IMG/VR virus record: IMGVR_UViG_3300029319_000017
Location: 23,893 to 87,892 of that record
Direction: 5' to 3' (one strand)
Source: a virus
Length of the DNA: 64,000 nt
The notes beneath the pieces are model-generated. The model had not been told where the DNA came from, made no database searches, and saw nothing but the letters and a program-made list of their open reading frames with translations. Both the position numbers and the translations under genes were made by a program. Positions within the stretch are counted from its first letter, which is position 1. Every line of letters starts with the position of its first letter. This document shows positions 15,240-52,799 of the stretch, in pieces.

Positions 15240-18200
15240 TTAACACTTTTTTAACATTTTTCTACCCCCTCTTCCATATAAAGATCTATAACCTCCTTCT
15301 CTTTGATTGGTATTGTTGCTTAGTTTTTTAAGATAACCTGCAAATGCATTTGAATACTCGGGAGTACCTTTTTTATCTTCCATACCTGGATTCAGTCTTT
15401 GAAAGTCTAGCTCATGTGTATAAAAATTATCTAATACATTTGTTTGACCTGCAATAGCTCTTGATAAATCATCTTGTGCTTTATATTGTAGGTAATCAGC
15501 TCCCATACCTGCTATACTTTGTACTGCATTTTGTACAGCCATTAACTTACGATCTTTAGTAGCAGCATCCGCAGCTCTATTAAACTCATCTACAGTTATA
15601 CGATTTGCAATATTTTGTCTTGTGTTTTGACTGTTTATTGCAGCTTCTTGTTGTTGTATCTGAGCATTAGCTCTTGCTTCTGCACTACCTATTTGTACAT
15701 CCTGCGCTTGTTTTTTACCCCATGATGCCATCTTAGCAGCAATACCTCCAGGGCCTGCTCCACTCTGCTCTATAAATCTACTCATTCCTCTATAGTTGCC
15801 TTCATTTTGTTCTCTTTCTGCATTAAATCTTACTCTATCTAAATGTGTTTCAGGAATTCTACCTGGCTCTGCCATATAGTCTGGTTTTTCTTTAAAAGCC
15901 ATATATGCAGGAAGTAATTGTAATCCTGCTCCAAGTAATGGTATTCCTGCTTGTCCTAACCCTCTTAAAAATCCACTTCTCTTTTTAGTATTTTCTTCTT
16001 CCGCTGTAGGAGATTCTTCTTCTATTTCAGGTTCACCAGTCCATTGATATTCATCATCAGGATCTTCATCTATTACAATGTCTAAATAAGGATTAAATTG
16101 ATATATATTAGGATCATATGACCCTGGCTCTACTTCATAAATATCTACTTCTTGCAATTCACTAAATTCTTTTAAAGCATTTAATGTATCTATACCAAAT
16201 TTACCATCTACACCTTGTTTATTTTTTCCTAAATCACCTTCTAATATATCTGTTTCTCTTCCACTAAAAAATGTTGGATTAGAATTTTTCAATTCTTCTG
16301 AAGGATTCATTAAATTACTTTGCAGTAATTTTACATGCTCTGGATTTCTAGGATCAAATGTATCTAATCCTGTAATAGCAGCTGCTTCATCTAAATACTC
16401 TGCTATATCTTCATCCGTTACTTTATTATATAATCCTGTAAATTCAGTTTTCTTTTTACTATCATTTTTTTTCTTATCATCATTTTTCTTATCATCATTG
16501 TTATTAGTTACAGGGTCATCATTTTTATTGTCAATCTTGTCAACAATTTCAAACGCCCCAAGTTCAGAATTATATCTAATTTCTTTACCTTCAGGAATCT
16601 CTATACTTGATAATGGTTGATATCCTTCTTGATCTAAAACACCACCACCATTTGCATACTTTTTTCTTTCGCCTCCAAGATCATACTTATCTCTACCAGC
16701 TGCTTTTTCTTGTATAGCTGCTAATCGTTCTATATCTTGTTGACTACCACCTTTTTTTAATATATCTTTATGTCTTTGCGCAAAAGATTTTCCTCCTAGT
16801 TTTAAATAACTAGAGAAAAAATAATCGCTTCCTTGTACTTTATCCATAGTTTCTCCACCCTCAACTTCTGTCATAGGGTCTAATTTAATTCCACCTTGTT
16901 CATGTTTTTTACCAACAAATTCTGTTGCTCCTCCTGGTAATGGTTTTGCTACACCTCCATCTAATTGTTTAGTTCCTCCATGTCTATATCCTAACATCAT
17001 AGTATTAGTAGGATCCATTATTGGCCCTGATTGAGATGGTCCAGATGCTGGTGGAACAACTAAAGGCATATTTTTGTTTGCAGCCATATGTTTATCTGTT
17101 TTAAGAGTACTTTTTGCTGCAGTTTTACCTCCACTTGTTGCAACTTTAAGACTACTCCCAGTATTTACTAATGGTTTTATAGGAGTTTTAGCTAATTTAC
17201 TTACACCTTTTATTCCTGCTTTAGCAAAAGATCCTCCCCAAGGAATAAATCCTAAACCAGCCATTCCTGCAGATTTTAGCGCATTCATATAATCACCTTC
17301 TTGAAGGTACTTACGAGCATCATTTGCATCTAATACTCCAGCAGCAAATCCAGCTAGAGGATTAAACATTCCTGCTACATCAAGAGCTAATCTTGCTTTG
17401 TTAGGGTCTACAGGCCCTCCTACTTCTACCTTTTTTCCATCAGGTGTTCTACTAAAATCATACCCCCCTCCAACAAATTTTCTAGGACTATTTTCTTGAC
17501 TTGCGTAGTTTAGGAGCCCGCCCTCCATATAAAAATTTCTGTATCCACCATCTTTATTCATCCTATCATTGTATATCATTTTTTTTAATTTGTTTGCGCG
17601 AGTTGCATTGTAGTACCTGTTAAGAACAAATGGCTGAGCAAATTTTTCAGCCTCTTCTAAAGCTTCCTTTGTACCTTTTGGTTGACCTTGTTTTGCTAGA
17701 TTTTCCATCCTTTTTCTATCTCCTTCTCTGTATCCACCATCTTGATTTTGACTTCGCTTTAAAGCTGCATCTGTAGGAGCACCTTTACTGCCTGGCTTTC
17801 TCATTTTTTCACCTGATCCTGCTTTTATTCTTTTTCTTTTAGCGTGTATATTAGCCCAAAGACCTGGACGACCTCCTGTTCTTAAAGTTCCCATGTCAGA
17901 TCCTGTATATTCTTTACCAGTTAAATTACCTGCAAATATAGCTTGATTAGCTTGTGCTTTTCTTGCTTCTTCTTCTGCCTCCATTTCTCTTGCTTCATCT
18001 CTAGCCTTTTTTCCTTTAAGACCGCTACTAATACCTCCTACTACTGCACCAACTCCTGCTCCAATTGCAGTACCAACTCCTGGTATAATACTACCTATTG
18101 TAGCTCCTGTTGCCGCACCTTTACCCATACCGCTTAATACAGTACCTGATGTTTCTCCTACATTCATCGTTGTAGCGTCATCATCATCAGAAACAGCAGT

Positions 18201-18713
18201 TATACCCTGTCCTACTAAATTAGCAGCTTGACCATATAAGTTAGCTTGACCTGCTGTCATACCTTCACCTGCTGCATAATTTTTTGCTGATTGCTCACCA
18301 AATATTTTAGCGTGCATGCCTCCAGGCGCATCAGCTGTACCATATTGACTTTTTAACAATTCCTCTTGATTCATACCAAACATATTTTTATCTTCTTTAA
18401 ATCTTTCTGTAGCAAGACTTTGCAATTGAGATGCACCTTGGGTTAAAGATTGATTTAGCATTTGATTAGTTTGATTTCTTTGTGTTTGCTGTTGTTGAAA
18501 TTGTTGTTGCCAAGGATTAGCCTGTATTTGAGCTAATTGATTTTCACCAGCATTTATTTGAGCTTGATTAACTTGTTCATACGAAGCTTGAGGTCCTGGA
18601 TTTATCATAGAAGTAGGTACAGTATTATTACCATACATACCTCCCATATTATAATAAGTTATTCTTCCTCCACGTTTGTAGAGTTTTCTTTTTTTAATTT
18701 TGTCTTTTTTCAT
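15240..18713 (-). CDS. Putative virion cargo/ejection protein, modular with many xxxGG motifs (~1,157 aa)
   Basis: Likely start ATG 18713 (MKKDKIKK), with less overlap of the upstream gene than the track start 18734. Glycine-zipper GAATGATIGSIIPGVGTAIGAGVGAVVGG; HEQGG...EVEGGET motif; Q/A-rich coiled-coil C-terminus. Confidence 0.72.
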   Translation of the reverse strand: MKKDKIKKRKLYKRGGRITYYNMGGMYGNNTVPTSMINPGPQASYEQVNQAQINAGENQLAQIQANPWQQQFQQQQTQRNQTNQMLNQSLTQGASQLQSLATERFKEDKNMFGMNQEELLKSQYGTADAPGGMHAKIFGEQSAKNYAAGEGMTAGQANLYGQAANLVGQGITAVSDDDDATTMNVGETSGTVLSGMGKGAATGATIGSIIPGVGTAIGAGVGAVVGGISSGLKGKKARDEAREMEAEEEARKAQANQAIFAGNLTGKEYTGSDMGTLRTGGRPGLWANIHAKRKRIKAGSGEKMRKPGSKGAPTDAALKRSQNQDGGYREGDRKRMENLAKQGQPKGTKEALEEAEKFAQPFVLNRYYNATRANKLKKMIYNDRMNKDGGYRNFYMEGGLLNYASQENSPRKFVGGGYDFSRTPDGKKVEVGGPVDPNKARLALDVAGMFNPLAGFAAGVLDANDARKYLQEGDYMNALKSAGMAGLGFIPWGGSFAKAGIKGVSKLAKTPIKPLVNTGSSLKVATSGGKTAAKSTLKTDKHMAANKNMPLVVPPASGPSQSGPIMDPTNTMMLGYRHGGTKQLDGGVAKPLPGGATEFVGKKHEQGGIKLDPMTEVEGGETMDKVQGSDYFFSSYLKLGGKSFAQRHKDILKKGGSQQDIERLAAIQEKAAGRDKYDLGGERKKYANGGGVLDQEGYQPLSSIEIPEGKEIRYNSELGAFEIVDKIDNKNDDPVTNNNDDKKNDDKKKNDSKKKTEFTGLYNKVTDEDIAEYLDEAAAITGLDTFDPRNPEHVKLLQSNLMNPSEELKNSNPTFFSGRETDILEGDLGKNKQGVDGKFGIDTLNALKEFSELQEVDIYEVEPGSYDPNIYQFNPYLDIVIDEDPDDEYQWTGEPEIEEESPTAEEENTKKRSGFLRGLGQAGIPLLGAGLQLLPAYMAFKEKPDYMAEPGRIPETHLDRVRFNAEREQNEGNYRGMSRFIEQSGAGPGGIAAKMASWGKKQAQDVQIGSAEARANAQIQQQEAAINSQNTRQNIANRITVDEFNRAADAATKDRKLMAVQNAVQSIAGMGADYLQYKAQDDLSRAIAGQTNVLDNFYTHELDFQRLNPGMEDKKGTPEYSNAFAGYLKKLSNNTNQREGGYRSLYGRGGRKMLKKC

Positions 18714-21700
18714 GTCTGTGGAATTTACGAGCACCCACTTCCGTGGAGTACAAATTTACTAAAAAACTATTAATATTACTAGTGATTAGTCTTATTGCTA
18801 GCCATTTATCTATCATTTTTCTAGGTCTAAATCTACCATCTGTTACTTTACTGGCTAGTGAACTGCCATTAAATGTTTCATGCATATCAGAAACTATAAA
18901 TAAAGGTAACTGATTTGGAGGTATAGAAGTAAGAGATTGTTGCCCATTTATCATAACTGCATTAATTTCAGTTTCTACTTCAACTCCATCTGTATTTACA
19001 GCAACTTCACCTACTTGTGAACTATTTGGTATAGGCAAGAAAGATAGCATATATAAGTTATCTAGATCTGGAATAGTTAAATTATTTACTGCACTATGAT
19101 TTGTAAAATCTCTAAATTTATTTATGCACCATTCACATCCATTCTTTCTTGCATTTAACATTTCTGTTATATTTTGTAATCCAGAACTTTGATGAGAATT
19201 GTATACAACAAATCTGTCAAATCCTGGACCGTGTGTTTTTGTTAATAATAAATTATCTTGTTGGTCCATATCTGGAATACGGTTATCACTACCTCCCATT
19301 ACACCGCATAACGGACATCCACCATAATCAATTTCAGAATCTATAGCTTGGCTAATTCTGTCAGATATCCAACAGAAGTTATAAAATAATTTATTAGTAA
19401 ATTTATTTTGATTATGTATTATTTCTAATTCTGATGTGTATCTTCTACCATAATACCATCCTTTTTGTCCTACATAATTATGTTTATAAATTCTATCTCC
19501 TATATTTAATCTAGAAGTAAAATGTGAAAAATTATTAAACGAGTATAAAGCATTAGATGTGTATGTATATTGATATGGTACATAGTCATGAAATGATATC
19601 CACGCTGATAATTTTGGAGAATATGAAGCAGTCCATCCATCTCTTTGGAAATAAGTCTCTTTGTTTCCTGGAGATAGTTTTGTTCCCATATAAGGATCAT
19701 CACTTACAGGTAAAATTTGCCAAGGCACTTCTTCAATTTCATCTGTAGTAAGAAGATTACCGTTATCATCAGTAGTTACATCAGGAAGTTTTATAAGAAA
19801 TTGATCTTCTGCATTTTCTACACCGTATAGATTGGAATTAGAAGGAGAATATGTTATCATACCTACAGGATCTGCAACATTTTGATCTATAAAGTTTTGC
19901 CAAGCTTGTAAAAATAGACTGTTTGGAACAAGTTCTCTTTTAGTTAATAGTATTCTTTGATATACTTCATCGTATGCACTTGTAAATCCAAAAGTTATTG
20001 GATTATCTGGGTAATTAACTTTACCAAATACTTTTAATTTATATGGTAAATTAGTTTGAAACCATTTTTCTAAACCCATAGATGATATGTCATATAACTG
20101 ATCTGAAAATAAATGTACAGATGCATTTCTTTGATCTACATAAAAATAACCAAAGTCTCCTACAAGTGTAGCAAATTGAGATTGTGTTCCACCATACCCT
20201 GCTTCTGTCTGTCTTATTTCTTCTGGCGGCTGTGCAAATAAATCACCGCTGCCTATAAATGCTTGTGATGCATCTCCTAACTCCATAGTCTGCTTACCCT
20301 TAGTTCTTAATATACTATCTTCCATATGGAAATATAGTAAGTTATTAAATGTAGCAATCTTCCATAACTCTCCTCTATTCTTTGGTAGATCTTTAAATTG
20401 TAAAGCTAAGAAAAGTCTGTAGTTATCAATTAAACTGCTATCATCTGATGTAGCGCTTCTAATAACTCTTGTTGGGAAAGAAGACGGTTGAGATATTTGT
20501 CTAGGTAAAGGTACTGTAGATCCAATACTATTAACAACAGAGTAGTCTTCATTATATTTCATGTTATCTACATCAGTACCATCTACAGTATTTTTTAATA
20601 TTAATAGATCACGTGCAGGAGTTCCTGGAAAATAAGAGTCTTTTTTACTATTTACATGTCTAAAGTTAATATTATCTGTAGATTCAACAATAGTATTATA
20701 TATTACTCTACAATCTTTTCTTCTTGTAGAATCAAATCTGCCTGGATCTGCAGGAAATTCATCTATATGAAAATTACTTCTAAGTGTTTTTCTATATCCA
20801 TGTCTACATATAAATGTATCCCCTCCAAATATATGTCCTGTTCTAAAATTATCTAGTGCTGGTTGTGCAGCTACTTTTATGTAGTCGTCAATACTCATAG
20901 CATTATAATTAGGCCATCCATCTGGGTAAACTCCGTCTATTATTGGTGGATTTGTTTGTCTGTTTAATACTACTGGATTAGGACCTTGAACTGCAAATGT
21001 AGGATGCAACCCATTATCTATTGCGGCTTGAAAACTCATTGTAGATAAATTATCTGTTTCAACAGTAATTCTTGGATTACCTACTCTATCAACTTTAAAA
21101 AAGTCATAGTCTTTTCCTGTTACTTCATACCCTGTCCATACAAGATCTTGTTGATCAAACGGACTGTACATGTCTAGCCTAAATGCATGCATATTAGCTT
21201 GGTACATAAATGGTTGAAATCCAGATTTACCTATCTGCGCTTCAAACATAGCGTCTGCTGGAGGATCTGTTTTTATCCATGGTAATGTACCAGGTAAATC
21301 AAATGCAGGTAATGTACCATATTTTTCATTTAATAATAATGATATATGACTTTCTCCATAATTATTCCAAGTCCTACGTCCAAATCCTAATTGTTTACCG
21401 TTAAATATACTATCTCCGTTAAGGTATGTTTTACTTCTTTCTTTAATAGGCCTATTTAAATCTACATGAGTTCCTTGTGATGATAACCATTGATATAAAT
21501 TTTCTGTGCCTGTACCACCATTAAATATTCCTAAAGCAGGATCTTGTGCCTCTGAAGGACTGTAAAAATTAAAAGCTGTATGAAGTCCTGTTATTACCTG
21601 GTTACTACTTGAATAACAAGTTTCAGATCCAGACTCTTGTCTTATAGAAGGTCCGCTAAATGCAATCATTTCTACAATATAATCTAGTTTTAAATGTGTA

Positions 21701-24700
21701 GCTGCTGTAATACTTCTTCTAGCTCCTCCACTATCACCCTGCCCATGACCACGCATTAAATAAAAATCATGAAAACTAATACCTTGATATCCAAATTCCA
21801 TACCTGCATCTGTAGGGTTTGGTAATGGATATCCTTCTTTTTCTACTTGATGTGGATAGTTTAACCAATAAAAGTTTTTATTATTTTCAAAAACAGAATC
21901 TAATGAATAAGAACTATCAGATATTGTTTCAGTAACATCACCACCACCACTATTTTCACATGAAGGGCGCATAGCCTCATCTACTGTTGCATAAGGATTT
22001 ACAATGTTTTGCCCTAGAATTCTTCTTTCATGATGATCTCTATCTGCATAATAAATTCTAAATCCTTGTGTTCTTTCATGTATATGTAAAGGTACTTTTA
22101 AATCTTCAAATTGTATACCTAATGCTCTTACATAATGTCCTATAGATCCTCCATCTACTGCAGAAGTATCTTGAGATTTCCAGTGTACCCACCCACGGCA
22201 ATCAGCAGCACGAAATGGAAAAAGTCCACTAGCGTTAATTGCAGTAGAACCCTCTGCTCCTTTTTTATTTGCTTTAGCTATAATAACTCCTTTTGCTTTA
22301 TCTACAAATACAACTGTTAGCTTACTTGAACTAATTGCATTTTGAAAATCAGCAGTACCCCAACCACCATCTTGTTCAATATTATCATCATCTACACTAT
22401 CTCCCATAGCACCACTATGAGTATCCCATGTCCAAACACCTTTTCCTTTCTTTTCTATACACCCTGTAGATAAATGCACTGTACCTCCTTTATCTCTACA
22501 ATCTCCTGGATTTGCAATTCCATCGTTACTACTTGGTCTAGAACTTTTAAAAAGATATTCATCTGTACCATATGTATTTAACGTATTACCCTCAAGACCT
22601 GCAGACCCATCCATTAAAAATCCATTGCTAGCATATGGGCTATCACCTGAATCTGTACTATTTTGACTAGCATAAGATCCAATTTTTCCACCATCACGAG
22701 CCCCATGATTTTGCCAAGCCATAGATATTTTATCTCCCATTTGTGGAAACTCATAACTATTATCATTTAATTCGTAGAACATAAATAATTGATTTTTATT
22801 ATCTACATTACCCATAACATTATGTATTTTAGCATCCTCACCATCAGGGTTAGTAGAATCACTATAAAGACCAGTTTGTAATCCAAGTATTGTAGCAACC
22901 TCTACAAGATTATCATTGTTCATGTCATTATTACTAGGGTCATCATTACCTTGATATATTCCTAATAATTTTCCAAATATAGTTTCATTATTATCTAAAG
23001 CAGTTGTTCCAAATCCTATTGCTGGCCTTGCTACTCTGTCTGAGCACCATCTAAAGTCAATAGCATATACTTCTTTAACTTCTAAGACAACATCTATTGT
23101 AGACGTATTATCTACAATAGTTTGATATGTAGGATTTTCATTAGATGGAAAATGATGATGTCTTACACGTCTACCTGCAATACTACCTTCTCGTCTATCA
23201 GGATTACTTGCATCTAGTATTTCCCAGTTAGATGCATTTAATTCATCACTAGGATAAAACTCATTTGTGTTTTGCCAATAGTTCATATTTCTAGAACCTA
23301 GTAACATGCTTGTTTCGAAAAAATGAAATATTCTACCTTTTTGATTAGTTATTTGGTTTAATGCATTTTCAGGATTACTAGGATAAATATCATCAGATTC
23401 AAAAGTAAAATTTATATCAAATATGTCAGTATTATACTGATAAGTAGGAACTCTATTATATTGAAAATCACCGCCTACTGATTCATCTAATCTTAGTGGT
23501 GCTCTTCCTGGTATATGATATGCATAAGACTCTGTACCATCTTCAAGTATAAATGCAATGTAAAATGCATATACTTCATCTCTAGTAAAACCTTTATATT
23601 TGTATATATTTTTATTATGCCTATATCCTTGAGATCTACTTTCTATATCTCCAGCCTGTAAATTATTAGGAAAAGTATCTATGTACCCATGTTCTAAAAC
23701 ATCAAGAGTTGCCTCATGCGGATCAAAATATGGAAATGGATGTAAAGCAGGTCTAGATTTAATAAAATTCGCATAGGGTTGATATCCTACATCCTTAGTC
23801 CCTTTTACGTTTCCTAAGTATAAACTACCATCTAATTGATTTATTGTCTTAGCGGTCTCGTATGAGGCTGTATCAACAATTACATCTTCTACACTGTCAA
23901 ATCCAGCAAAACCTTCTAAACCTGTAAATGTAACTGTTTGTAGCTCTACAGTTCCTGCTGTATTTTTTATAGGAAGATCATTTAATTTAAATGTAGTACG
24001 TTTACCATCTGCTCTTCTTATAACAACAGGTCTTAAATATTCATAGTCTGTATTTAAATTACTAACTGCCCATGAAATAGATTTACCTGATGGTACACCT
24101 GCAGGGGCTCCGTCATACCTTTCTATAGGTAATACACCCTCTACATCTTCTACAATAGATACAGGATTAGCAAGCGTTACATAATTAGTTGAAACAAGAT
24201 CTCTATCTACATATGCAAGAGCTAAAAAATATACACCTGTTTGCAAATTACCTCCTGGATTTATACTGTCAAATTCTACATGGGGTACAGGACCAGACGA
24301 TGGGAATAAATCTAACATTCTAATATGATGTGGATTACTAGTTGTTTCAGGATCTAAACCATACAATCTTTCAAAAGGAGCTGATGCACCTTCTGGATTA
24401 TCTATCCATTCTTTTTGCCTAGTAACATTCATTGCTCTAGGCGGATTTAAATTATCTACCCAATATATAAAAAGTTCACCTTCAGGATTTATTTTATAAG
24501 TTCCTTCTATAAAATTATCTCTACTAAAATTTAAATTAAAGTTTGTCCCTGTTATTGCTACTGAAACATTAACTGTGCTTATATTAGGTCTAAATAATGT
24601 AGTATAAGAATCATTTTCTAACAACCCTATTTCAGAATTGTAATCAGTTGCAAATGTATTAAAAGCTACACTTTGATCAGCATTAAGTATACCTTGTTCA

Positions 24701-24957: not shown

Positions 24958-25916
24958 TACATTGATCTATTTAAATTTTCTTTAGTATTCATTTCTTCAA
25001 AAAATAAACTATGCGCATTAACATCAGGAACCATTCTTACCCATTGATCCATAAAGCTTTGCATTTTATCAATATCTGGGAAGTTAGCATTTGCTCTAGC
25101 CTGTGAACAATACTTCATCCATTTTTGATCTGCATAGTTATAGTCTATTTTATTATTAGGTTTGTCATATCCTCCTAATAATAATTGTTTAAATATGTAC
25201 CAAAACATAGCTTCTTTATAACTAATGTCATCTGGTACAAGAGGAAAGCAATCCTCATCTACAGGAAAAGCTGTATATGATAAACATACCTGTCCTGATG
25301 CAAAAGATGTTTTTATATAATTGTAATCTATTATATAAGAATCTTTTGCATTTGATACTTCATTAACACAGTCTACACAATGTATAGACTCTGGAAAAGT
25401 ACTAGCCCCATAACATAATGGTACTAAACTAGCACTTGTTCCATCGATCTTGTTGTTAAAAAACATCCCCTCTAAAACAATAATCCTACTGTTAATTTCA
25501 TTTAACTCTAGCACATTGCTTTTATATTGTGTATCATATGTCGTTAGATCTGCATTAGTTACATTAGATGCGTTGTCTAATAGATCTGATTCTAGTGTTT
25601 GGTTATATTCTTGTACAACTGATTTTAGCTCATTTACTTTTGTAGTAAGCGTTTCTAACTCAGCAGCAATAGATGGCTTTACTAAGTTATTTACTGCAAC
25701 TTGATTAATATAATATAGATCGCTAGGTAGCAATGCTTTATTATCTTTAATGTGTAATACAGTCTTTTTTGTAACTAGTTGAGCAGCAGAGCCTATATGC
25801 TCTAATGCTTCACCTATCCACTCTATTGCGTCATCTACCCAATTATCATCATTAGGTTTTAAATCACGCATTACTTTTCTAATAATACCTTTACTTGATG
25901 TGTGTCTGTAAATCAT
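24957..25916 (-). CDS. Tail ring / tail tubular protein
   Basis: DAIEWIGEALEHIG, IKTSF..G.VCLSY.AFPVDEDCFPLVPD, W.KYCSQA; adjacent to the muzzle gene as in crAss-like tail modules. Confidence 0.75.
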   Translation of the reverse strand: MIYRHTSSKGIIRKVMRDLKPNDDNWVDDAIEWIGEALEHIGSAAQLVTKKTVLHIKDNKALLPSDLYYINQVAVNNLVKPSIAAELETLTTKVNELKSVVQEYNQTLESDLLDNASNVTNADLTTYDTQYKSNVLELNEINSRIIVLEGMFFNNKIDGTSASLVPLCYGASTFPESIHCVDCVNEVSNAKDSYIIDYNYIKTSFASGQVCLSYTAFPVDEDCFPLVPDDISYKEAMFWYIFKQLLLGGYDKPNNKIDYNYADQKWMKYCSQARANANFPDIDKMQSFMDQWVRMVPDVNAHSLFFEEMNTKENLNRSM

Positions 25917-25920: not shown

Positions 25921-26361
25921 TTAACATTTCCACTTTCTCAGTGATTTATTTATTCTTGAATTAGGATCGTTTGCTGTTTTCTTGCTTGTAAGTTTTCTTT
26001 TCATACCTCTCATTCTAGCACAAAAAGATCTTTTTCTTGGTCCTCCCTCTGGTTGTGGTGGTTTTATATCTTGTCCTTGAGCTTTTAAAGATGCACGTCC
26101 TTTTGCATTTAATCCCCCACTAGGACTTTTACCTTCTTTTCTTTGCCATGCAGGACTCTTCATTCCTCCAGATCTCATACAGTCTGCACATCCTCCATAT
26201 CTTTTTTTCTTTGCAGTTTTTGCAGATCTTTTTAATGCTTCGTCTGTAACAGACCCTTTACCTGGTTTAGATGTACCTCTTTTTTTAGCTCTGTTCATAT
26301 AATAATACAAACCTTTTCTAGCTTTACGACCGTCTTTTGTTATGTGATATTTGCTTGCCAT
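25921..26361 (-). CDS. Small highly basic protein with DUF6321-like C-terminal domain; probable internal virion protein
   Basis: K/R-rich; AWQRKEGK.PSGGLNAKGRAS...RKRSFCARM...DPNSRINKSLRKWKC. The two halves are separated by RYGG and MRSGG. Confidence 0.65.
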   Translation of the reverse strand: MASKYHITKDGRKARKGLYYYMNRAKKRGTSKPGKGSVTDEALKRSAKTAKKKRYGGCADCMRSGGMKSPAWQRKEGKSPSGGLNAKGRASLKAQGQDIKPPQPEGGPRKRSFCARMRGMKRKLTSKKTANDPNSRINKSLRKWKC

Positions 26362-26831
26362 TATTTTTTAAATTTTAAATATGCTAAGTCATCTGTTTTT
26401 AATAGATTAATTAGCTTTTCTTTATTTCCTTTCAAACCTCTAGTAGGAGTAAATCTATAAGCAGACTTATTTGGTATGCGGCATTTACCTTTGTTCCAAT
26501 AATATCTGCAGTAAAATTTATCAGTATAGTATATATACCATTTTACTCCTTTTTCTGTGTGTTTACTATATAATGTTTTACCATTTTCTAGTAACTCTTT
26601 TTTATATTTATTGCTTTCTCCCCAGTCTATTCTAGGAGATCTAGGATCTCTTTCTGTCCTTCTTATAGATAACGTAGATAAATTGTTACCCATGTTAAAT
26701 GTTCCTCCTTCTAATATATCTTCTACAGTTTTTATATTAAAATCTGAACATATAGCTTTAAATATAGTTTTATCTATATTTTCATTTGTATTGCAGTAAT
26801 CATTATATATATCTTCTAATGTATAACTCAT
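26361..26831 (-). CDS. IHF/HU-like DNA-binding protein of the crAss-like tail module
   Basis: Helical N-terminus then ILEGGTFNMGNNLSTLSIRR...IDWGES...YRFTPTR, the pattern of crAss-like IHF homologs; synteny. Confidence 0.65.
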   Translation of the reverse strand: MSYTLEDIYNDYCNTNENIDKTIFKAICSDFNIKTVEDILEGGTFNMGNNLSTLSIRRTERDPRSPRIDWGESNKYKKELLENGKTLYSKHTEKGVKWYIYYTDKFYCRYYWNKGKCRIPNKSAYRFTPTRGLKGNKEKLINLLKTDDLAYLKFKK

Positions 26832-28676: not shown

Positions 28677-28934
28677 TTATCTTGGTTTTTTTGCTTTTTT
28701 AGCTCTATCTGCAATAGCAGCAAAGTTTTTTGCACTACCTTCTAACTTACCTCCTTTCATCATCATTTTCTTTTTGCCCATTCCTCCATACATCATTTTC
28801 TTTTTTCCTTTAGTAGCACCTGCAATTCTATCAGCTTGAGTAGGATTTGGATTATTATCAATTCCTGCTTTAACACTAAGCATACCAAAATTTGATTTTC
28901 CTCCTTTTTTCATCATTTTCTTTTTACCGTACAT
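28677..28934 (-). CDS. Small Lys/Met/Gly-rich basic protein
   Basis: KKKMMKKGG, KKKMMYGG, KKKMMMKGG repeats flanking GIDNNPNPTQADRIAGA. Confidence 0.7.
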   Translation of the reverse strand: MYGKKKMMKKGGKSNFGMLSVKAGIDNNPNPTQADRIAGATKGKKKMMYGGMGKKKMMMKGGKLEGSAKNFAAIADRAKKAKKPR

Positions 28935-33300: not shown

Positions 33301-33648
33301 TTATAAGTCTAAAAAGTCTTGATAAGAATATGATGCATTATTAGACCCACCATTTTTATACATTTTCTTTTTACCTCCCATTTTAAATCCAGGTCCCATT
33401 TTTTTCTTATTTATTGGGCTATTTTTAACCCTTGTTGTTTTCTTTCTTCCTTCAGCGGGCACATTCGCAACAGTTCCACTATCTTTCGATTGCATTTTTT
33501 TCTTTAAGTCATCTGCTGTAACTGTTGAATAAGTTTTTCTTTTTTCAGTTAAATCAAGTGCTTTTTTTCTAAACTTAAATGTTTCTTTTCCTTTAGCCCT
33601 AGCTTTTTTAAATTTTTTTTCAAACCTAGATAATTTTCGTTTTGTCAT
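33301..33648 (-). CDS. Small basic protein ending in tag GGSNNASYSYQDFLDL
   Basis: FEKKFKKARAKGKETFKF basic domain; FKMGG and YKNGG motifs; C-terminal 16 aa identical to the neighbouring gene. Confidence 0.75.
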   Translation of the reverse strand: MTKRKLSRFEKKFKKARAKGKETFKFRKKALDLTEKRKTYSTVTADDLKKKMQSKDSGTVANVPAEGRKKTTRVKNSPINKKKMGPGFKMGGKKKMYKNGGSNNASYSYQDFLDL

Positions 33649-33677
33649 GATTATTTTATTTTAAATTATATTTATAT

Positions 33678-33974
33678 TTACAAATCTAAAAAATCTTGGT
33701 AACTATAAGAAGCATTATTAGATCCACCTTCTCTATATTTGCTATAGCTTATATTTCTTTCTTTTCTGTCTTTTTTTGTTGTCTTTATATTACCACCTTT
33801 AGGCAATACTGTTTTCTTTCCAGTTTTTCGTTTACCCATACCTGCTAATTTTCCACTAGCATCTCTTCTTACTGTTTTCTTTATTGTTCCGTCTTTGTTA
33901 TATTTTACTTTTATTTGACCACCGTCACTAGTTTTTGCCTTTTTAACTCTTTTTCGAGTACTAATATCTTTCAT
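33678..33974 (-). CDS. Small basic protein ending in tag GGSNNASYSYQDFLDL
   Basis: K/R-rich; YREGG then the same C-terminal tag. Confidence 0.75.
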   Translation of the reverse strand: MKDISTRKRVKKAKTSDGGQIKVKYNKDGTIKKTVRRDASGKLAGMGKRKTGKKTVLPKGGNIKTTKKDRKERNISYSKYREGGSNNASYSYQDFLDL

Positions 33975-44787: not shown

Positions 44788-46029
44788 TTATTCCATTTTC
44801 TGCACTTCACTACTGTGAGTTGCATACCTTGGATCGGAAATAGCCTCCAAGATACTTGCCACTGCTAGTTTTACAATTTCCTCATGAGTGTGTTCTGGAA
44901 GATCACAACTACTATTAGTTGGTAAATTGACCACAGCAGGGCGTCTTATATATGTTAACCTAATCTTATCTACAATAAATAAATCATCGGTGTAAACATC
45001 TATGTTATTTCCTCTCATCACAGTTAGAGGGGAACTGTATTTTGTTTTGTTAAAAGGATCGTTTATCATTGAATGTATATCATCATGTTGAACCATTCTA
45101 CATGAATGCGATTCTCTTACATAAGAAGCCCAAGTATCACTTGTTGGAATTCTTTTTTGATTTAGTACATCATCCTTAAATAATAAAGGTGTTTGTACTG
45201 TTATAATATTATCAGCCTGTCTACCAGCTAAAAAAGTAACATTACCTAAAGATCCATCCCAATTTATCCAATCAAATGCTTCTTGATCTATTACAGCTAT
45301 AAAACTACCAGGATAAGATATTTGTGATCCGCCTATTGGCCAGTTTTCCCAAAATATATCTCCTAATGCCCAGTTATCTAAAATGTCTTGTATCAATCCT
45401 GATGATACATCTTCTCCATTTCCTGGCCCAGTATTTGGAAAAACATCTGGATCATTATCTATAGTAAACTGCAAAGATCCATCCATATTACCCCATGACC
45501 ATGCATTTTCTATTATGCTAGTAGCAGGAGCTCCTATTTCACTAAACATTTGTATTTGACTTAACCAAGATGTACTATTACCAGCTTGGTTTTGACCTAC
45601 AAAGTCATTTAAGTTAAATATAAAATAAAAAATAGAATCCTGATCTGTTAGATTAAATCCTATTGGTTCACATGTAGGCAATCTTTTAATTTCTGTATTA
45701 ATATTGATTAAATACATGTAGTCAGTGGGTAAAAATACTGTATCAGTAAATAAAGACCCACCTGGTTGAGCTGAACTTTTTAATTGTTCTTTAAATGATG
45801 CTTCAAGAACGACTTCTCTTACTAACGTTCTTAGATCATCTCTTCTTTTTTGTGACTCCTCAAAACCTTTTCTGTAAAAGTTATTTTGTTGGAATCTTGT
45901 TGTAACAAATTGTTGTATAGCTTTGTTCAACTCTCGATCTAATTCTGAAGTAAGTAATGAATCAGCAACTTGGGCATGGATTTTGTCCACGCCCTGTTGT
46001 ACTGATAAGTGCATTTCTTGTATATCCAT
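44788..46029 (-). CDS. Tail ring / head-tail adaptor protein
   Basis: GFEESQKRRDDLRTLV, LPTDYMY, LTYIRRP, CDLPEHTHEEIVKLAV: crAss-like ring protein pattern. Confidence 0.75.
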   Translation of the reverse strand: MDIQEMHLSVQQGVDKIHAQVADSLLTSELDRELNKAIQQFVTTRFQQNNFYRKGFEESQKRRDDLRTLVREVVLEASFKEQLKSSAQPGGSLFTDTVFLPTDYMYLININTEIKRLPTCEPIGFNLTDQDSIFYFIFNLNDFVGQNQAGNSTSWLSQIQMFSEIGAPATSIIENAWSWGNMDGSLQFTIDNDPDVFPNTGPGNGEDVSSGLIQDILDNWALGDIFWENWPIGGSQISYPGSFIAVIDQEAFDWINWDGSLGNVTFLAGRQADNIITVQTPLLFKDDVLNQKRIPTSDTWASYVRESHSCRMVQHDDIHSMINDPFNKTKYSSPLTVMRGNNIDVYTDDLFIVDKIRLTYIRRPAVVNLPTNSSCDLPEHTHEEIVKLAVASILEAISDPRYATHSSEVQKME

Positions 46030-47002: not shown

Positions 47003-48457
47003 TTATGACGCTGTACACGTAATATCTAGAGAAGTATCAAATCTCTTAAGAATGATACCAGCTGTTTTTAACATGTGAACAGAAGCGCCGTCAACATCAG
47101 ATGCTCTTGCACTTGTTCCGTCAAAACCTCTAGGTACTACAGACCCAGCTACACACCATCTCATCATTTCTCTTCCTTTTTTAGAAAGCATTTGAAGGTT
47201 TGCTTGTCCGTCATAGTTAGACTGATCAACAAATACCATTCTGTATGATTCTAGTGAGTATCCAGTTACAGGGTGTCTTCCTGCAGCTTGAGCAACAGGA
47301 CCATGATCAAATAAAGGTAGTTTAACTACATTTACTGTATGTCCGTCTACGTGCTCGTACTGTGTAAAGTACCCAGTAAGACCTAATGATCTACCTGAAC
47401 CTGTAATGAATCTATTCTCACCACCTACTTTGAATGAGTTTGCACTTGATCCAAAGTGATTTTTAAGAGCTTCATCAAATTCACGCATACCACCAGTTCC
47501 TGTGTAAAGCGTAACTTGTTTTTGATTAGCATCAGTCATACCATAGAATAAATCACCAATAATGTTTTTGATCTTAGTCTCTGTTAAAGTAGAATAAGTA
47601 TCTTTATTAACGATTTGCTCAAGTAATCCTGGTCCTACAATTACTGGTTGACCATTTTCATCTTTCATGAAAGTGTGTCCGTCAGCATTATAAGTTTTTT
47701 GTCCGTACCAGTAGAACATCTCACATTCTTCTTTAAAGTTAAGCATGTGTTGATATTCTTCATAGTCCATCCATAATTTTGTAGTAGCTCCACCTTTAGT
47801 AGGTAATCCAAACTCAACTACATAGTCTCGCGCGTGACCAGACATGTGGTATGATTTTCTTACTGTACCAATCTTGTTTCTTACTAAAGAAGGTGATTGC
47901 CAGTTTGAAGCATTTCCTCTAGAGAAATCAACTCCTACTGGTGCATACAACTGAGCCCAAAGATCACCTACAGTAAAACCTGAAGATAAAGTTGCGCTAG
48001 TTGCTGGATTAACTAACTGTAAAGTATATTTCCAGTTGTTAGTTCCTGCTACTGGTTCTGGTTCTTTCATAATACGTGCTAGTTCTCCTGCAGAGTTTAC
48101 TAGTACATATGGAAAGATAAAAAATTTGTCAGGAAATTGTATTTCAAAAGTACTACCTCCTTGACCTAAATTACCACCACTATTAGTCGCCGCTACTGGT
48201 CGTGTCTTTCTTTTGTGAGTTGCTACACGATATTCATATTCCAATCTATCCATTGACTTAACATTTCCAACCCCCTCAGTTAAGAATGATAGAGGAAATC
48301 TTTTATCGTCTTTACCAGCCAAATGTGTGATAATTGGAGATAATTCAGTAGGCTTTGACATAAGGGCGTTTGCTAGACTGTTCATATCAGTCATTTGCGA
48401 ATCATTATAAAACGTTTTTACAACGCTAATGTTCTTACCTTGTTGTGACATTGCCAT
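47003..48457 (-). CDS. Major capsid protein (crAss-like, HK97 fold)
   Basis: 484 aa between scaffold and gene-75-like ORF; FPLSFLTEG, GPGLLEQI, LYTGTGGMREF, HLPLFD-like VKLPLFD, HPVTGYSLESYRMVF.D. Confidence 0.9.
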   Translation of the reverse strand: MAMSQQGKNISVVKTFYNDSQMTDMNSLANALMSKPTELSPIITHLAGKDDKRFPLSFLTEGVGNVKSMDRLEYEYRVATHKRKTRPVAATNSGGNLGQGGSTFEIQFPDKFFIFPYVLVNSAGELARIMKEPEPVAGTNNWKYTLQLVNPATSATLSSGFTVGDLWAQLYAPVGVDFSRGNASNWQSPSLVRNKIGTVRKSYHMSGHARDYVVEFGLPTKGGATTKLWMDYEEYQHMLNFKEECEMFYWYGQKTYNADGHTFMKDENGQPVIVGPGLLEQIVNKDTYSTLTETKIKNIIGDLFYGMTDANQKQVTLYTGTGGMREFDEALKNHFGSSANSFKVGGENRFITGSGRSLGLTGYFTQYEHVDGHTVNVVKLPLFDHGPVAQAAGRHPVTGYSLESYRMVFVDQSNYDGQANLQMLSKKGREMMRWCVAGSVVPRGFDGTSARASDVDGASVHMLKTAGIILKRFDTSLDITCTAS

Positions 48458-48485
48458 AATTTTCTAAATTTTAAAAGTTAATAGG

Positions 48486-49634: not shown

Positions 49635-49658
49635 TGTTCTATATATTTTTTGGTACTA

Positions 49659-49666
49659 CAAAAATA
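49659..49666 (-). promoter_or_regulatory. Bacteroidota-type -7 promoter box (TATTTTTG) upstream of scaffold/MCP
   Basis: Matches TAnnTTTG in the intergenic gap, 24 bp upstream of the start codon. Confidence 0.6.
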
Positions 49667-49729
49667 CCTATTATTAATTAGTTTTTATTATTAAAAATAT
49701 ATTTAGAGTGTCTTTTTAATATATAACAC

Positions 49730-50479
49730 TTATTTTTTATTAAAGTCTTTTAACTTTTCTAAATCCCATTTATACCCACCTTTTTTTCTAAGATAGTCTT
49801 TAATGTAGTTATCAGCGTAATTATTATCTAATCTATATCCACCTTTTTGTTTTGTACCACCTAAAGTTTTAGCATATTTAGCAGCGGCATCTCTATCAGT
49901 CCCAAAATGTATTACTTCTCCTCTACGTTCAGCTTCTGCAGCTACTGATCTCCAATCTTTATTAGCTTGTTCAGATCTATCATCCCAACTTCCATCCTCA
50001 TTTTGAAATAATGTGGGAAAAGCAAACCAATTTATTCCATCTGCAGTTTCATGTCTCATTATATGAGTTGAGTAAGAACCATCCTCATTATCTCTTTTTC
50101 CTGTTCTTTCTGGAAGTTTAAATCCACCTTCTTGATACTGACTAGGATTTTCTAATACTGTTTCTACTCTTTCTCCTGTAGGCATACTTCCTGCAGTTTC
50201 TGATTGATAGCTTTGCACTAATTCTTGTGATGGTGCAGCGTTTGCTTGTTCAATTGCTTCTTGGTTTCTCATTTCCATAGGAGGCATGTCTGTTCCTAAT
50301 GATACTTTTGCAGGTGAGTTTGCAGGTACATCCATTGGATTTATATCCATAGGTTCTAACTCAGGATCTGTACCTGGTTCAGGATCATTTTGTTGAAATA
50401 ATTCTGTAAAAGATCCTTTGTAGCCTGTTGCATAGGCTTCTTTCATTAGTTGTATTTTTTGATCATTAGTTAGAGCCAT
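49730..50479 (-). CDS. Hypothetical modular protein with xxxGG-delimited segments
   Basis: P/E-rich N-terminus, YQEGG, a central YSTHIM...FPTLFQ..DGSW domain, then KTLGG, KQKGG, RKKGG. Confidence 0.7.
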   Translation of the reverse strand: MALTNDQKIQLMKEAYATGYKGSFTELFQQNDPEPGTDPELEPMDINPMDVPANSPAKVSLGTDMPPMEMRNQEAIEQANAAPSQELVQSYQSETAGSMPTGERVETVLENPSQYQEGGFKLPERTGKRDNEDGSYSTHIMRHETADGINWFAFPTLFQNEDGSWDDRSEQANKDWRSVAAEAERRGEVIHFGTDRDAAAKYAKTLGGTKQKGGYRLDNNYADNYIKDYLRKKGGYKWDLEKLKDFNKK

Positions 50480-52799
50480 CTTGTTTCTTTTTTTGATTTA
50501 ATGCTTTTTCTTTTAGTTCTAAATCTTTATCTTTTCTTATACCATCTTGTCTAACACCACCCATTTTCATTTCTTGTTCTGATTGTATTAATCTTTCTTT
50601 TGCAGCATTAGATCTAGCTTTTTCATCATTAGCTTGTTGTCTAATAGCTATATCTTGATCTTTTCTTGCTGCATCAGCCATAGCTTTTTGCATATTAAAA
50701 TTATCAGAATTTAATTTAGATTGAGCTGCTATTTCTGCTACTTGTATTTTAACTTCTCTGTCTCTTTCTTTATTCATATTTTCATTATCAAGCTCTTGTT
50801 GTTTTAATTGTGCTTCTTGTTGAGCTTGTTGAGCTGCAGCTTGTTGTTGTGCTTGTTGTAATTCTTGTTGTGCTTTTTCTGCATCTCTAATTTTATGTTT
50901 TATTTCTGTAAAGCTGTCTGCATCTACCATTTCAGCAACTGTAGAAGCTGGTACCCCATTTTGTACCATTGATTGTGCAAGAGCTTTTAGTGTATCTAGT
51001 TTATCTTGATCTCTACCAGCATCAGAAACAAATATACCATATTCTGATTCTAAATGATCCATTGCATCTACATCAAAATAATCTATTGTACCATCTGACA
51101 TTACGTACATTCCTTTTTTACCTGCTATCCAAGCTTCTTTAGAATAATCTAATAATGCTTGCATATCTCTTTGTTCTAATCTTGCAAATTTTCTAAATAA
51201 ATCTTCTGTAATATGTGATGATTGTACAATAGCTTGTTGTGATGTAGCTTTACCTTCGTATGCACCAACTTGTCCTTGTCTTTGTCTATTTACTCCAGAT
51301 ACTTTTTCCCATTCTAACATTATAGATTCTAATAAACCTATGTATTGTTCTATAGTTTTTATAGACATGTCAAGTACCGATTGATGTTGTGGAGATAGTT
51401 GTATTCCTTCTTTATTATAATCTACCCACGCAATACCTGTACCTTCTACATAATACATAAACTTATCTAAGTCCCATTTTTTTGGGATCATATTAATATC
51501 AAACTGTGCAACAATATCTTTTGACTTTGCAATTGATAATTCTAATCTATATTTATAAATATTGTAATTTAATTGATAAGGTATACCTAGTGATACTAAA
51601 GATATATTTCTAGAGTTAAGATCTGAATATTTACGACCATTTATTGGTAGTTTACATTTAGATGGGTTGTCCATAGAAGTTCTTTGGTTTTCTAAAGGTT
51701 GCATTTTTACATACAATCTACCATCTATTCTTGTTCCTTCCCATACTTCATTAACCCATTCGTAATCTACCTTTGCACCTGTTGCTTTTAAATCTGCAGA
51801 CAATCTATACGTTTCATCAACTTGCATTTCTTCCATTGTCCCAGTTTCTGGATCAATATAACTTAAAAATCCTATTCTTTTTCTACTTTTCCAATATACA
51901 CTTACAACTTCTATTAGTCTTTCTCTGTATAATTCTCTATCATCTGCTCTATTAGATACTGTTAGATAAGAATCCATACTTGCGTGTTCAGGTTCTTCTA
52001 AGGATAGTATTTCTTCATCAGTTAACTCATCTCTATAATAATCTATAATTGTAGACGCATGTACATATTTTCTAACTAACGCCCAATCCCCATCTTCTAC
52101 AAAATCTAAATCAGGATCTTTGTCGTAGTCTATATCTAATGGATTTAATATTTCATAAAAAGGTTCGTTATTTCTAACTCCTCTCCATGTGTATACTTCT
52201 CCAGATACTAAATAATGAAACCATGCTTTTTGGAATTTATCGTAGATTTCTTGGTCTTGCATTATAAAATTAATAGACTGTTGTCCTTTTAATGCTCTAT
52301 TATCTACATATGTTTTTTCAAACATTTCTGCTATTTCAGCAGGCGGTGGTACTTCATTAGAAGGTGTACCAGTTTCTATTCCTTGCTCATTTAAAACATT
52401 TACAAATTGTTGTTGTAAATTTTTCATGATCAATTCTTGCTTTGCTTTTTCTTTTTGTGTAACAGCATCAGCATTTTGTACGGTAACGGTGTAATTAAGG
52501 GGTCTTTTTGATTTTTCACCCAATAACAGATCGATTATAGGCTTAATAATAGGATAGTTACGCATTTTAGAGGGGAAATTGTCCCTAGTTTTACCGTAGG
52601 GTTTTAACACGTATCTGTAATCTGCATCATCAATTACACCGTTGTAATAATCATATAGGCTCTTTAGCCAGTCACGTCTTTCACTGTAACCAGCTGTAGA
52701 AAGATCTATGTATGCCTCCACGCATGCTTCTCTCCACTTCTTATCTTTTTTTCTTATTGATAATTTTTGTTGGGGGATCTTATTTGAACCTAAATACAT
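50466..52799 (-). CDS. Portal protein
   Basis: 777 aa downstream of terL; NYPIIKPIIDLLLGE..KRP, WVNEVWEGTRI, SGVNRQRQG; coiled-coil C-terminus. Confidence 0.92.
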   Translation of the reverse strand: MYLGSNKIPQQKLSIRKKDKKWREACVEAYIDLSTAGYSERRDWLKSLYDYYNGVIDDADYRYVLKPYGKTRDNFPSKMRNYPIIKPIIDLLLGEKSKRPLNYTVTVQNADAVTQKEKAKQELIMKNLQQQFVNVLNEQGIETGTPSNEVPPPAEIAEMFEKTYVDNRALKGQQSINFIMQDQEIYDKFQKAWFHYLVSGEVYTWRGVRNNEPFYEILNPLDIDYDKDPDLDFVEDGDWALVRKYVHASTIIDYYRDELTDEEILSLEEPEHASMDSYLTVSNRADDRELYRERLIEVVSVYWKSRKRIGFLSYIDPETGTMEEMQVDETYRLSADLKATGAKVDYEWVNEVWEGTRIDGRLYVKMQPLENQRTSMDNPSKCKLPINGRKYSDLNSRNISLVSLGIPYQLNYNIYKYRLELSIAKSKDIVAQFDINMIPKKWDLDKFMYYVEGTGIAWVDYNKEGIQLSPQHQSVLDMSIKTIEQYIGLLESIMLEWEKVSGVNRQRQGQVGAYEGKATSQQAIVQSSHITEDLFRKFARLEQRDMQALLDYSKEAWIAGKKGMYVMSDGTIDYFDVDAMDHLESEYGIFVSDAGRDQDKLDTLKALAQSMVQNGVPASTVAEMVDADSFTEIKHKIRDAEKAQQELQQAQQQAAAQQAQQEAQLKQQELDNENMNKERDREVKIQVAEIAAQSKLNSDNFNMQKAMADAARKDQDIAIRQQANDEKARSNAAKERLIQSEQEMKMGGVRQDGIRKDKDLELKEKALNQKKKQDGSN

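Follow-up and report, generated by a model that had tools for sequence, protein, structure and literature searches.

The adenovirus protease (adenain) recognises the consensus (M/I/L)-X-G-G↓X, which occurs in core and precursor proteins. In bacteriophage T4, the capsid-targeting sequence of the internal proteins is removed by the prohead protease gp21 at the motif L/I-x-E, and the encapsulin cargo-loading peptides are short conserved terminal peptides on Gly-rich linkers, which mark cargo for a shell of the HK97 fold. The present analysis concerns a recurring Gly-Gly motif in a stretch of viral DNA of 64,000 nucleotides (positions 23,893 to 87,892 of the IMG/VR record IMGVR_UViG_3300029319_000017), referred to here as the window, in which Pfam and PHROGs recognise a structural and cargo module belonging to a crAss-like phage that is marine and divergent. 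The motif is carried mainly by a homolog of gp45, the cargo protein C1 of crAss001. Residues 425-552 of gp45 are modelled as a single segment on the portal wing, and the accessible part of that paper mentions neither the motif nor proteolysis (Bayfield et al., 2023; PMC10172136). Polyvalent proteins with a zincin-like metallopeptidase have been described as well, for which, in the available portion of the article, processing is a prediction (Iyer et al., 2017; PMC5512222).

As a composite joint, the motif can be written [basic]-Phi-x-x-G-G, with Y-[KR] frequently coming next and Phi being Y > M > F/L. These joints lie in disordered, basic stretches that directly abut folded or conserved modules, namely the portal-binding domain, the GLWANIH, DUF6321, LysM and STHxM modules, the C-terminal YSYQDFLDL peptide, and the basic N- and C-terminal tails. 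The gain and loss of cassettes falls exactly between G-G and Y-[KR], and every cassette arrives with a ...Phi-x-x-G-G of its own. Conservation is highest for the copies on either side of the domain that is located on the portal wing in crAss001.

The 1164-residue protein is identified as the homolog of C1 because its gene position, a profile match, an hhalign match and the match of a domain model agree. The gene follows the muzzle gene and precedes an ORF (open reading frame) of 696 residues and the giant virion RNA polymerase (vRNAP) gene, which is the position of C1. A profile of 72 homologs matches gp45 (PDB 7qog_M) at residues 80-231, the Gly-zipper/transmembrane and helix region, with an E value of 1.4e-4 in hmmsearch, and hhalign aligns the protein with the C-terminal helical region of gp45 (residues 653-767) at a probability of 91.6% and E 8.2e-7. 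Gly-zipper matches in Pfam were weak and below the cut-off, phmmer of C1 against PDB sequences gave no match, and Foldseek against the PDB, with both the whole-C1 model and the domain model, returned nothing below E 1. The length is counted from a GTG at 18734; the likely start is an ATG at 18713, corresponding to residue 8. Relatives of this protein come from marine metagenomes, a first scan of viral contigs with a full C1 having given one. A full-length cultured relative was not found, and tblastn against cultured phages matched only the GLWANIH cassette of 40 residues (57 records).

All motif strings listed in a first-pass annotation of the window were recovered in the genes named there, on the minus strand, with the correction that KRYGG has its Tyr at -1 and not at -3. 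Enrichment was evaluated within the window with 2000 composition-preserving shuffles per protein. In C1, YxxGG occurs 7 times against 0.59 expected and [YFM]xxGG 8 times against 1.59 expected (p = 0.0005 in both cases). A second genome, G001 (85,154 nucleotides), is syntenic, and its C1 ortholog contains 10 copies where 1.78 are expected (p 0.0005); none of the remaining proteins among the 77 ORFs of G001 was significant. The comparison with a composition-matched background, which the first-pass annotation had proposed, thus shows an excess for C1 in two genomes. Of the small ORFs, that of 85 residues has 3 copies against 0.29 expected (p 0.003) and that of 115 residues has 2 against 0.07 (p 0.0025); a single copy is present in each of the ORFs of 98, 146 and 249 residues and in the portal tail, none of them significant by itself (p 0.095-0.17). 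At a background frequency of Y+F+M of about 0.10, one of these residues stands at -3 in 16 of the 42 GG pairs of the six proteins named in the first-pass annotation (Y in 10) and in 7 of the 83 of the other 40 ORFs in the window (Y in 1), a pooled contrast that is inflated by the post hoc choice of the six proteins; the enrichment in C1 stands without it. In the rest of the genome, the motif is found at none of 15 GG pairs in 27 plus-strand ORFs, at none of 5 in a protein of 1666 residues and at one of 12 in the vRNAP of 4786 residues (FLNGG).

Beyond the two genomes, 120 metagenomic C1 homologs contain YxxGG 324 times against 72.8 expected and [YFM]xxGG 589 times against 204.6 expected, counts that do not represent independent events because the sequences are homologs. 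In an alignment of 13 C1 orthologs the motif columns are retained and their flanks are variable. The preferred hydrophobic residue occupies P5 (-3 from the first G), the adjoining position is mostly Q, K, E or R, and the residue after GG (P1') is variable. The net charge averages +1.8 over the nine residues ending at GG. Doublets with a spacing of 7-9 residues occur 44 times in 54 non-redundant C1 homologs, as opposed to about 0.3 times in shuffles. The motif is non-random and conserved, and it is restricted to proteins of the internal or cargo type, in agreement with the earlier description.

The best-defined module flanked by the motif is the portal-binding domain. In an AlphaFold2 model of C1 residues 560-720, fragment residues 28-123 (residues 587-682 of the protein) reach a score of about 90 in the predicted local distance difference test (pLDDT), and the rest of the fragment stays below 50. 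VIA-align matched this domain model with residues 425-551 of 7qog_M (Z 9.5, root-mean-square deviation 4.0 Å, 88 aligned residues, 31% identity; next match Z 4.3); Foldseek missed the match, which was found by VIA-align alone. The match begins at model residue 28, equivalent to gp45 residue 425. In a local alignment, G586-G587 of C1 falls on G427-G428 of gp45 and KKYANGG on SMFAYGG, with a score of 67 compared with 39.8±5.7 for shuffles, of which 0 of 300 reach 67. The joint of gp45 that is equivalent to YRHGG, AFGG at 425-428, is modelled as continuous with the ordered domain, which indicates indirectly that it is not cut after GG in crAss001 virions.

The confidence of the domain model climbs at G587 and drops at residue 683, which are the two brackets. 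In the AlphaFold model of the whole C1, half of the protein has a pLDDT below 50, and 5 of the 12 motif sites lie within six residues of one of 12 major borders between order and disorder, compared with about 1.6 expected: LRTGG (284-288), NQDGG (330-334), YRHGG (583-587), YDLGG (684-688) and QREGG (1144-1148). A β-hairpin acting as a staple at the joints was considered but is not supported, as no strands are predicted there and the confidence is low. A profile of the domain finds 618 representative clusters at E ≤ 0.001, and the brackets were evaluated in the best 150 of these, 131 of which have the anchor HxxGG[IVLM]. In the proteins long enough to be tested, [YFMW]-x-x-G-G is present just upstream of the domain in 68 of 119 and just downstream in 93 of 126, as opposed to 5.5 of 131 (left) and 8.0 of 131 (right) in control windows of equal size in the same proteins, or about 5%. 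Ahead of the domain the sequence typically reads M-x-Q-Y-Q-x-G-G-x-x-L-P-G-G, and behind it K-Y-Q-x-G-G. A dense cluster of GG pairs near the centre of the protein (HEQGG, VEGGE, KLGG and others), with columns invariant in 72 homologs, is simply the conserved core of the domain.

Comparison between strains shows how cassettes are placed relative to the joints. Orthologs of C1 read uninterruptedly LKRGGYRNFYMGGG where the C1 of the window carries two inserted cassettes, each ending x-x-D-G-G followed by Y-R. A composite joint accordingly consists of Y-x-x-G-G on its left side and x-x-x-G-G-Y-R on its right. The protein of 249 residues reads ...SQYQEGG, then a cassette FKLPER...TKQKGG, then YRLDNNY; its G001 ortholog is without the 95-residue cassette and reads ..QYKDGGYKLDNNY.., and P0127 (154 residues), 98% identical to the 249-residue protein in the common parts, lacks exactly this module of 95 residues. 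The STHxM module is present in further proteins, where FQMGG, AQNGG or AQMGG stands ahead of it and YKKGG, YKNGG or YRRGG behind it. The statistics of insertions and deletions are based on pairwise alignments of C1 homologs; of 839 candidate pairs, the 400 with the highest similarity were used. Among 337 unique insertions of at least 15 residues, the left border lies within three residues of a GG in 89 and the right border in 53 (35.7 expected each), and both borders do so in 38, compared with about 3.8 expected from the product of the two per-border rates; these numbers indicate a trend and not independent counts, because some events recur with shifted borders. The statement in the first-pass annotation that the motif falls at module boundaries is borne out by the model borders, the family-wide brackets, the cassette polymorphism and these statistics.

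At the nucleotide level, a direct repeat of nine nucleotides (AA GGT GGA T) is present at both junctions of the 95-residue cassette. The 28 motif GG pairs use 10 different codon pairs, with the same common pairs as non-motif GG pairs. As the codon pairs of the motif are varied, there is no conserved DNA word, and an explanation at the codon level was rejected, since the motif codon pairs are no different from those of GG elsewhere.

A fifth independent line of evidence for joints between modules is that some of the modules joined by the motif are genes of their own in other phages. In Prochlorococcus phage P-SCSP1d and Pelagibacter phage HTVC131P, the GLWANIHAKRKR module (phrog_16028) and DUF6321 are each encoded by a tiny ORF of their own. 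In HTVC131P, a trio of tiny basic ORFs (an MYGKK.. peptide, the GLYANIHAKRKR module and DUF6321) lies at 2242-2731 between the scaffold and capsid genes, and in P-SCSP1d the GLYANIHAKRKR module and DUF6321 lie at 2759-3177 between the capsid and tail-tube genes. The MYGKK... peptide of HTVC131P resembles the 85-residue protein of the window. DUF6321 occurs in 508 marine phage records.

The motif is also placed near the ends of C1. A GG pair lies within the first 35 residues in 37 of 54 non-redundant homologs (about 25 expected), motif copies being found 5-25 residues from the start in most homologs, and within the last 25 residues in 39 of 54 (about 19 expected), usually as KRGGY with a basic tail of 12-18 residues. 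The N-terminal part is Q/N-rich and attracts polyQ matches. The GLWANIHAKRKR cassette matches phrog_16028 at E 2e-20 and has a pLDDT of 70-86 between two segments below 50. Residues 766-863 of C1 (16146-16439) form the most confident part of the model (pLDDT >90) without a Pfam match; they contain GVDGKFGIDTLNALKEF, which presumably resembles peptidoglycan-binding domain 1, and homologs carry SLT, LysM, tail-lysozyme or CBM14 domains instead. A C-terminal Cys is conserved in C1 orthologs (...LKKC; 15240-15245) and in DUF6321 proteins (...RKW[KN]C; 25921-25926). Disulfides are listed for the crAss001 tail in the accessible part of the structural paper (PMC10172136). Gel bands reported for crAss001 in 2018 range from 15 to >300 kDa.

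The smaller carriers share the motif in different contexts. The protein of 146 residues is 83% identical in G001, with both GG sites retained, and has an isoelectric point (pI) of 10.9. The G001 ortholog of the 85-residue protein (63 residues) lacks the two middle copies, and the N-terminus of the 85-residue protein resembles HTVC131P gp33. The adjacent proteins of 115 and 98 residues are fast-evolving, and their sole common part is the C-terminal peptide ..GGSNNASYSYQDFLDL (33301-33974); in G001 the YSYQDFLDL end and the YREGG joint are retained and YKNGG is replaced by RKGG. This C-terminal peptide looks like a docking or targeting peptide. The small carriers have a pI of 10.4-10.9 with about 29% K+R, and the 249-residue carrier is acidic (pI 4.9). 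Motif carriers are among the proteins that diverged most between the two genomes, with 31-64% identity compared with 80-95% for most structural proteins; the 146-residue protein, at 83%, is an exception. The coordinates of all these features are given in Table 1.

Table 1. Motif-bearing features and landmark genes of the window; positions refer to the window and residue numbers to the protein concerned.
Feature	Position	Strand	Remarks
vRNAP polyprotein, part inside the window	3..13133	minus	4786 residues in the full record
C1-like cargo protein (crAss001 gp45 homolog), 1164 residues	15240..18734	minus	main motif carrier
C-terminal doublet of C1, QREGGYR and YGRGG, then basic tail RKMLKKC	15243..15305	minus	
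Portal-binding domain of C1 (residues 587-682) with brackets YRHGG (583-587) on the left, YDLGG (684-688) and YANGG (693-697) on the right	16644..16988	minus	
Second cassette of C1 (residues 335-397) ending NKDGG before YR, then YMEGG (402-406) and FVGGG (420-424)	17463..17729	minus	disordered in model
Left joint LRTGG of C1 (residues 284-288), then GLWANIHAKRKR cassette (phrog_16028, residues 289-334) ending NQDGG before YR	17730..17885	minus	
Basic N-terminal leader of C1 with doublet YKRGG (residues 19-23) and YNMGG (28-32)	18630..18713	minus	kept in orthologs; pLDDT <50
Muzzle (PF25731)	18694-24957	minus	Pfam/PHROGs
Ring proteins	44788-46029, 26831-27526, 24957-25916	minus	Pfam/PHROGs
Basic protein of 146 residues: phrog_16028-like module, then KRYGG and MRSGG, then DUF6321	25921..26361	minus	
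Basic protein of 85 residues, three KKKMMxxGG copies (MKKGG, MMYGG, MMKGG)	28677..28934	minus	pI 10.7
Adjacent basic proteins of 115 and 98 residues, common only in the C-terminus Y-x-x-GG-SNNASYSYQDFLDL	33301..33974	minus	
Crass major capsid protein	47003-48457	minus	Pfam/PHROGs
Protein of 249 residues just after the portal gene	49730..50479	minus	95-residue STHxM/FPTLFQ cassette (49838-50122) between YQEGG and KQKGG before YR
Portal	50466-52799	minus	Pfam/PHROGs
MKMGG in the portal C-terminal tail	50556..50570	minus	in G001 as MKMGGAR; single copy, p 0.17
TerL	52894-54858	minus	Pfam/PHROGs

As the first-pass annotation had proposed that the motif directs cutting, the genome was searched for a suitable enzyme. 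Neither Pfam, applied to 74 ORFs (E ≤ 0.01), nor PHROGs, applied to 64, revealed a protease family, and the earlier observation that no canonical prohead protease is visible in the window can be extended to the whole genome as far as both libraries can see. The cysteine protease that might have been encoded in the rest of the genome did not appear either, as Peptidase_C5, C39, C48 and S77/S78-type families gave no match at this threshold in the 74 ORFs. A double-glycine leader system would comprise a C39 peptidase, usually fused to an ABC exporter, and a leader of 15-30 residues ending in GG; the same ORFs contain neither a C39 peptidase nor an ABC transporter, and the motif is also internal and C-terminal. 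A six-frame search with PF00770 gave no match, though control profiles also gave none, and a very divergent enzyme could escape. The only genes between those of the portal and the major capsid protein encode the 249-residue protein and an acidic protein of 382 residues (pI 4.5) without a family match, and no prohead protease of the HK97 S78, T4 S77 or U9/U35 type is found there. The nearest named Atlas cluster of the latter is 'scaffolding protein' (0.84), a weak lead that the ORF before the capsid gene is an acidic scaffold; as a hidden protease it was rejected, the Atlas score for Prp (0.82) being at chance level. The structural module also includes some 14 small ORFs that carry no annotation, among which a novel protease could escape these searches.

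The sole peptidase-like signature of the genome is a zincin-like HEGFH at residue 2275 of the vRNAP (window ~6309-6323); the catalytic DFDID motif is at residue 3692 of the same polypeptide. The zincin motif fused into the vRNAP, which the first-pass annotation had pointed out, is indeed present and conserved as TTYHEGFH...EEYLAEEF in G001 and in crAss001 gp47. The vRNAP polyprotein has no YxxGG and no motif at the fusion junction, and in C2 the motif is found at none of 4 GG pairs. The arrangement is not that of the polyvalent type, as HExxH is absent from C1 and present in the vRNAP, which lacks the delimiter. In Cellulophaga phage phi14:2, g070 (18634-20415), at the position of C1, contains two HExxH (HEFTH, HEFIH), which may be zincin domains within the cargo protein itself.

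Our preferred reading, held tentatively and at just short of an even chance, is that the motif forms uncleaved hinge-plus-anchor joints between the cassettes of extrusion-ready internal proteins. The carriers would be internal, ejected virion proteins of a large marine crassvirus-like lineage. The joints would remain uncut and G-G would serve as a hinge, so that each module could fold, dock and later thread through portal and tail separately. The aromatic and basic residues may anchor the chain to a partner, either the portal or ring surface, or DNA; beside this anchor proposal stands the cryo-EM model of crAss001, which starts at the equivalent AFGG. The short common coding stretch (GGN GGN TAY) would make the joints favoured sites of cassette shuffling. 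In favour of this reading are the excess and conservation of the motif, the borders in both AlphaFold models, the match and alignment of the domain with gp45, whose residues 425-552 form one segment on the portal wing, the family-wide brackets, the indel statistics, the cassettes that differ between strains, the doublets and the joints beside the basic tails at both termini. Several points weigh against this reading. The solved structure argues against cleavage only after G428, at one site in one distant relative, and a cut immediately ahead of the motif, or elsewhere, is possible. AlphaFold gives low confidence and no secondary structure at the motifs. A sequence-specific delimiter flanking modules that are separate ORFs elsewhere also resembles a polyprotein cleavage code. 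In cultured relatives with the same virion plan the motif is absent from Fpv1 gp31 (0 vs 0.93) and weak in phi14:2 g070 (2 vs 0.34), so that it is dispensable for the common architecture. Finally, the small basic proteins are putative virion components only.

The same observations can be read as sites of a maturation protease, which would free the cassettes and clip short peptides off the N- and C-termini in the manner of a polyprotein or the adenovirus core, the enzyme being the co-packaged zincin of the vRNAP, an unrecognised phage enzyme or a host enzyme. We consider this unlikely. A conserved, sequence-specific delimiter of stand-alone modules, its position in exposed, disordered segments at module borders and the N-terminal copies 5-25 residues from the start in most homologs would suit such an enzyme, as would the conserved zincin motif; in addition, the literature speculates that zincins process crass polyproteins and polyvalent proteins, the latter in the available part of PMC5512222, and parts of crAss001 gp45 are about 420 Å apart on both sides of the portal (accessible part of PMC10172136), which cleavage would make easier to explain. 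Against it stand the empty searches of 74 and 64 ORFs, the lack of YxxGG in the vRNAP, its motif-free fusion junction and the 0 of 4 in C2, the homologous crAss001 joint that is modelled as intact after GG, and the missing enrichment in Fpv1. Doublets 7-9 residues apart and copies about 7 residues from the C-terminus would release only tiny peptides, and a hydrophobic residue at P5 with a variable P1' does not favour a protease site. Moreover, the vRNAP of N4, whose zincin is of the same type, reportedly undergoes packaging without being processed (accessible part of PMC5512222), and the crAss001 paper is, in its accessible part, silent on proteolysis (PMC10172136). Slightly less likely still is the more specific idea that Phi-x-x-G-G(-Y-R) is a combined processing and targeting code, in which concatenated basic-peptide and cargo cassettes are guided by a leader into the procapsid and released in the head by a co-packaged protease; within it, the GLWANIH, DUF6321 and MYGKK modules would be small basic DNA-associated peptides and the protease the vRNAP zincin or an unrecognised enzyme. 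If true, Crassvirales would have a maturation like that of the adenovirus core, and strains would exchange cassettes at the joints. Of the interpretation in the first-pass annotation, the non-random conserved border motif and the absence of a detectable prohead protease stand, whereas cutting at GG is not supported, given the missing protease family, the vRNAP and C2 without the motif, the crAss001 joint modelled as intact and the weak signal in cultured relatives; a packaging code, the other half of the idea, is conceivable.

The joints might also be recombination scars or hot spots without a function of their own, with GGN-GGN-TAY microhomology driving insertions and deletions and the motif hitch-hiking. 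The nine-nucleotide repeat at both junctions of the 95-residue cassette, the presence or absence of the cassette between strains 98% identical, the enrichment of indel borders at GG and the high divergence of most carriers (31-64%, the 146-residue protein at 83% excepted) point in this direction, but 10 codon pairs in 28 motif GG pairs leave no conserved DNA word, the residue at -3 and the basic context persist across clusters below 50% identity, and terminal copies and domain brackets are conserved without any indel, which makes this explanation improbable. Quite improbable, too, is a sticker in the manner of RGG/YGG sequences, with Tyr and Arg/Lys as stickers and Gly as spacer holding the basic cargo together with packaged DNA or in a condensate. 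The net charge of +1.8 up to GG, the basic small carriers (pI 10.4-10.9, about 29% K+R), the Q/N-rich N-terminal part with its polyQ matches and the C-termini with GG-Y and basic tails are in line with it; the motif is nonetheless found in the acidic 249-residue protein (pI 4.9), its best-conserved copies flank a protein-binding domain, and C2 and the vRNAP are in the same cargo space without it. Chance, arising from the composition of Gly- and Lys-rich disordered proteins, is rejected for C1 by the composition-keeping shuffles in two genomes (p = 0.0005) and by the positional conservation of the sites, and Gly-rich tail proteins show no excess (1 vs 0.49 expected in a 472-residue ORF with a Gly fraction of 0.148). 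It is conceivable only for isolated single copies such as those in the 98-, 146- and 249-residue proteins and the portal, which are singly not significant, and overall it has next to no probability.

Some features of the genome provide the context of these proteins. All genes from 3 to 58523 are on the minus strand. Identity between the major capsid protein and its counterparts in cultured crassviruses is only about 30%. The phage is represented by a metagenomic record alone, which has 87,892 nucleotides and is rated complete, and its ends (window 61063-64000 and the first 2,946 nucleotides of the record) are diverged copies with 79% identity over about 2.9 kb. The record is probably composed of two strains joined across a circularly permuted genome, with a true length of about 84.95 kb. 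A gene for a GroES-like co-chaperonin lies at 57634-57909, upstream of the packaging genes (Cpn10 E 2.4e-4; phrog_3188 E 2.6e-8), and RIIA- and RIIB-like genes are adjacent in the replication module at 11753-15768 of the genome record, outside the window.

The carrier family (C1/gp45) is already known; the joint motif and the behaviour of the cassettes were found described nowhere in the literature searched. For studying the loading, storage and ejection of cargo protein, which amounts to megadaltons in crassviruses, the motif is a concrete and mutable marker. It delimits the portal-binding domain of C1 and the cassettes across at least 618 sequence clusters, marks the points at which strains swap cassettes, provides testable sites for functions in hinging, docking or cleavage, and gives a simple rule for parsing otherwise unannotatable cargo proteins into modules.

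In comparison with known systems, the joints resemble adenain sites in having a hydrophobic residue a few positions before G-G, in their occurrence in small, very basic proteins and in their position near termini. In the window, however, the hydrophobic residue is at P5 and not at P4, no Peptidase_C5 was detected and the virus is a tailed phage. The analogy with [MIL]xGG drawn in the first-pass annotation fails at this point, although two of the three sites in the 85-residue protein happen to match P4. With the T4 internal proteins they share a short N-terminal leader on otherwise unrelated internal proteins, but the motif is different, no prohead protease gene was found and the joints of the window are also internal and C-terminal. 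Encapsulin cargo peptides are likewise short, conserved and terminal, on flexible Gly-rich linkers in unrelated proteins; their sequence is different, and the cargo proteins C2 and vRNAP are without the motif. The carriers are modular, fast-shuffling and virion-delivered like the polyvalent proteins, and the vRNAP of the window has the zincin HExxH, whereas the C1 of the window lacks it and no delimiter is described in the available part of that study (PMC5512222). The closest likeness is with crAss001 gp45 (7QOG chain M), which shares with the C1 of the window the gene position after the muzzle, the Gly-zipper/transmembrane and helix region, the portal-bound domain and the C-terminal helical region. 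It follows the same plan more loosely, with FDTGG at residue 17 in a basic N-terminus and with AFGG at 425-428 and FAYGG at 559-563 on either side of the portal domain, and its C-terminus has EYTGG..KGG and a basic tail ending TYG. The C1 of the window and its marine relatives differ from gp45 in having far more joints of a stricter form, Y-x-x-G-G(-Y-R), and in carrying extra cassettes, the GLWANIH module among them.

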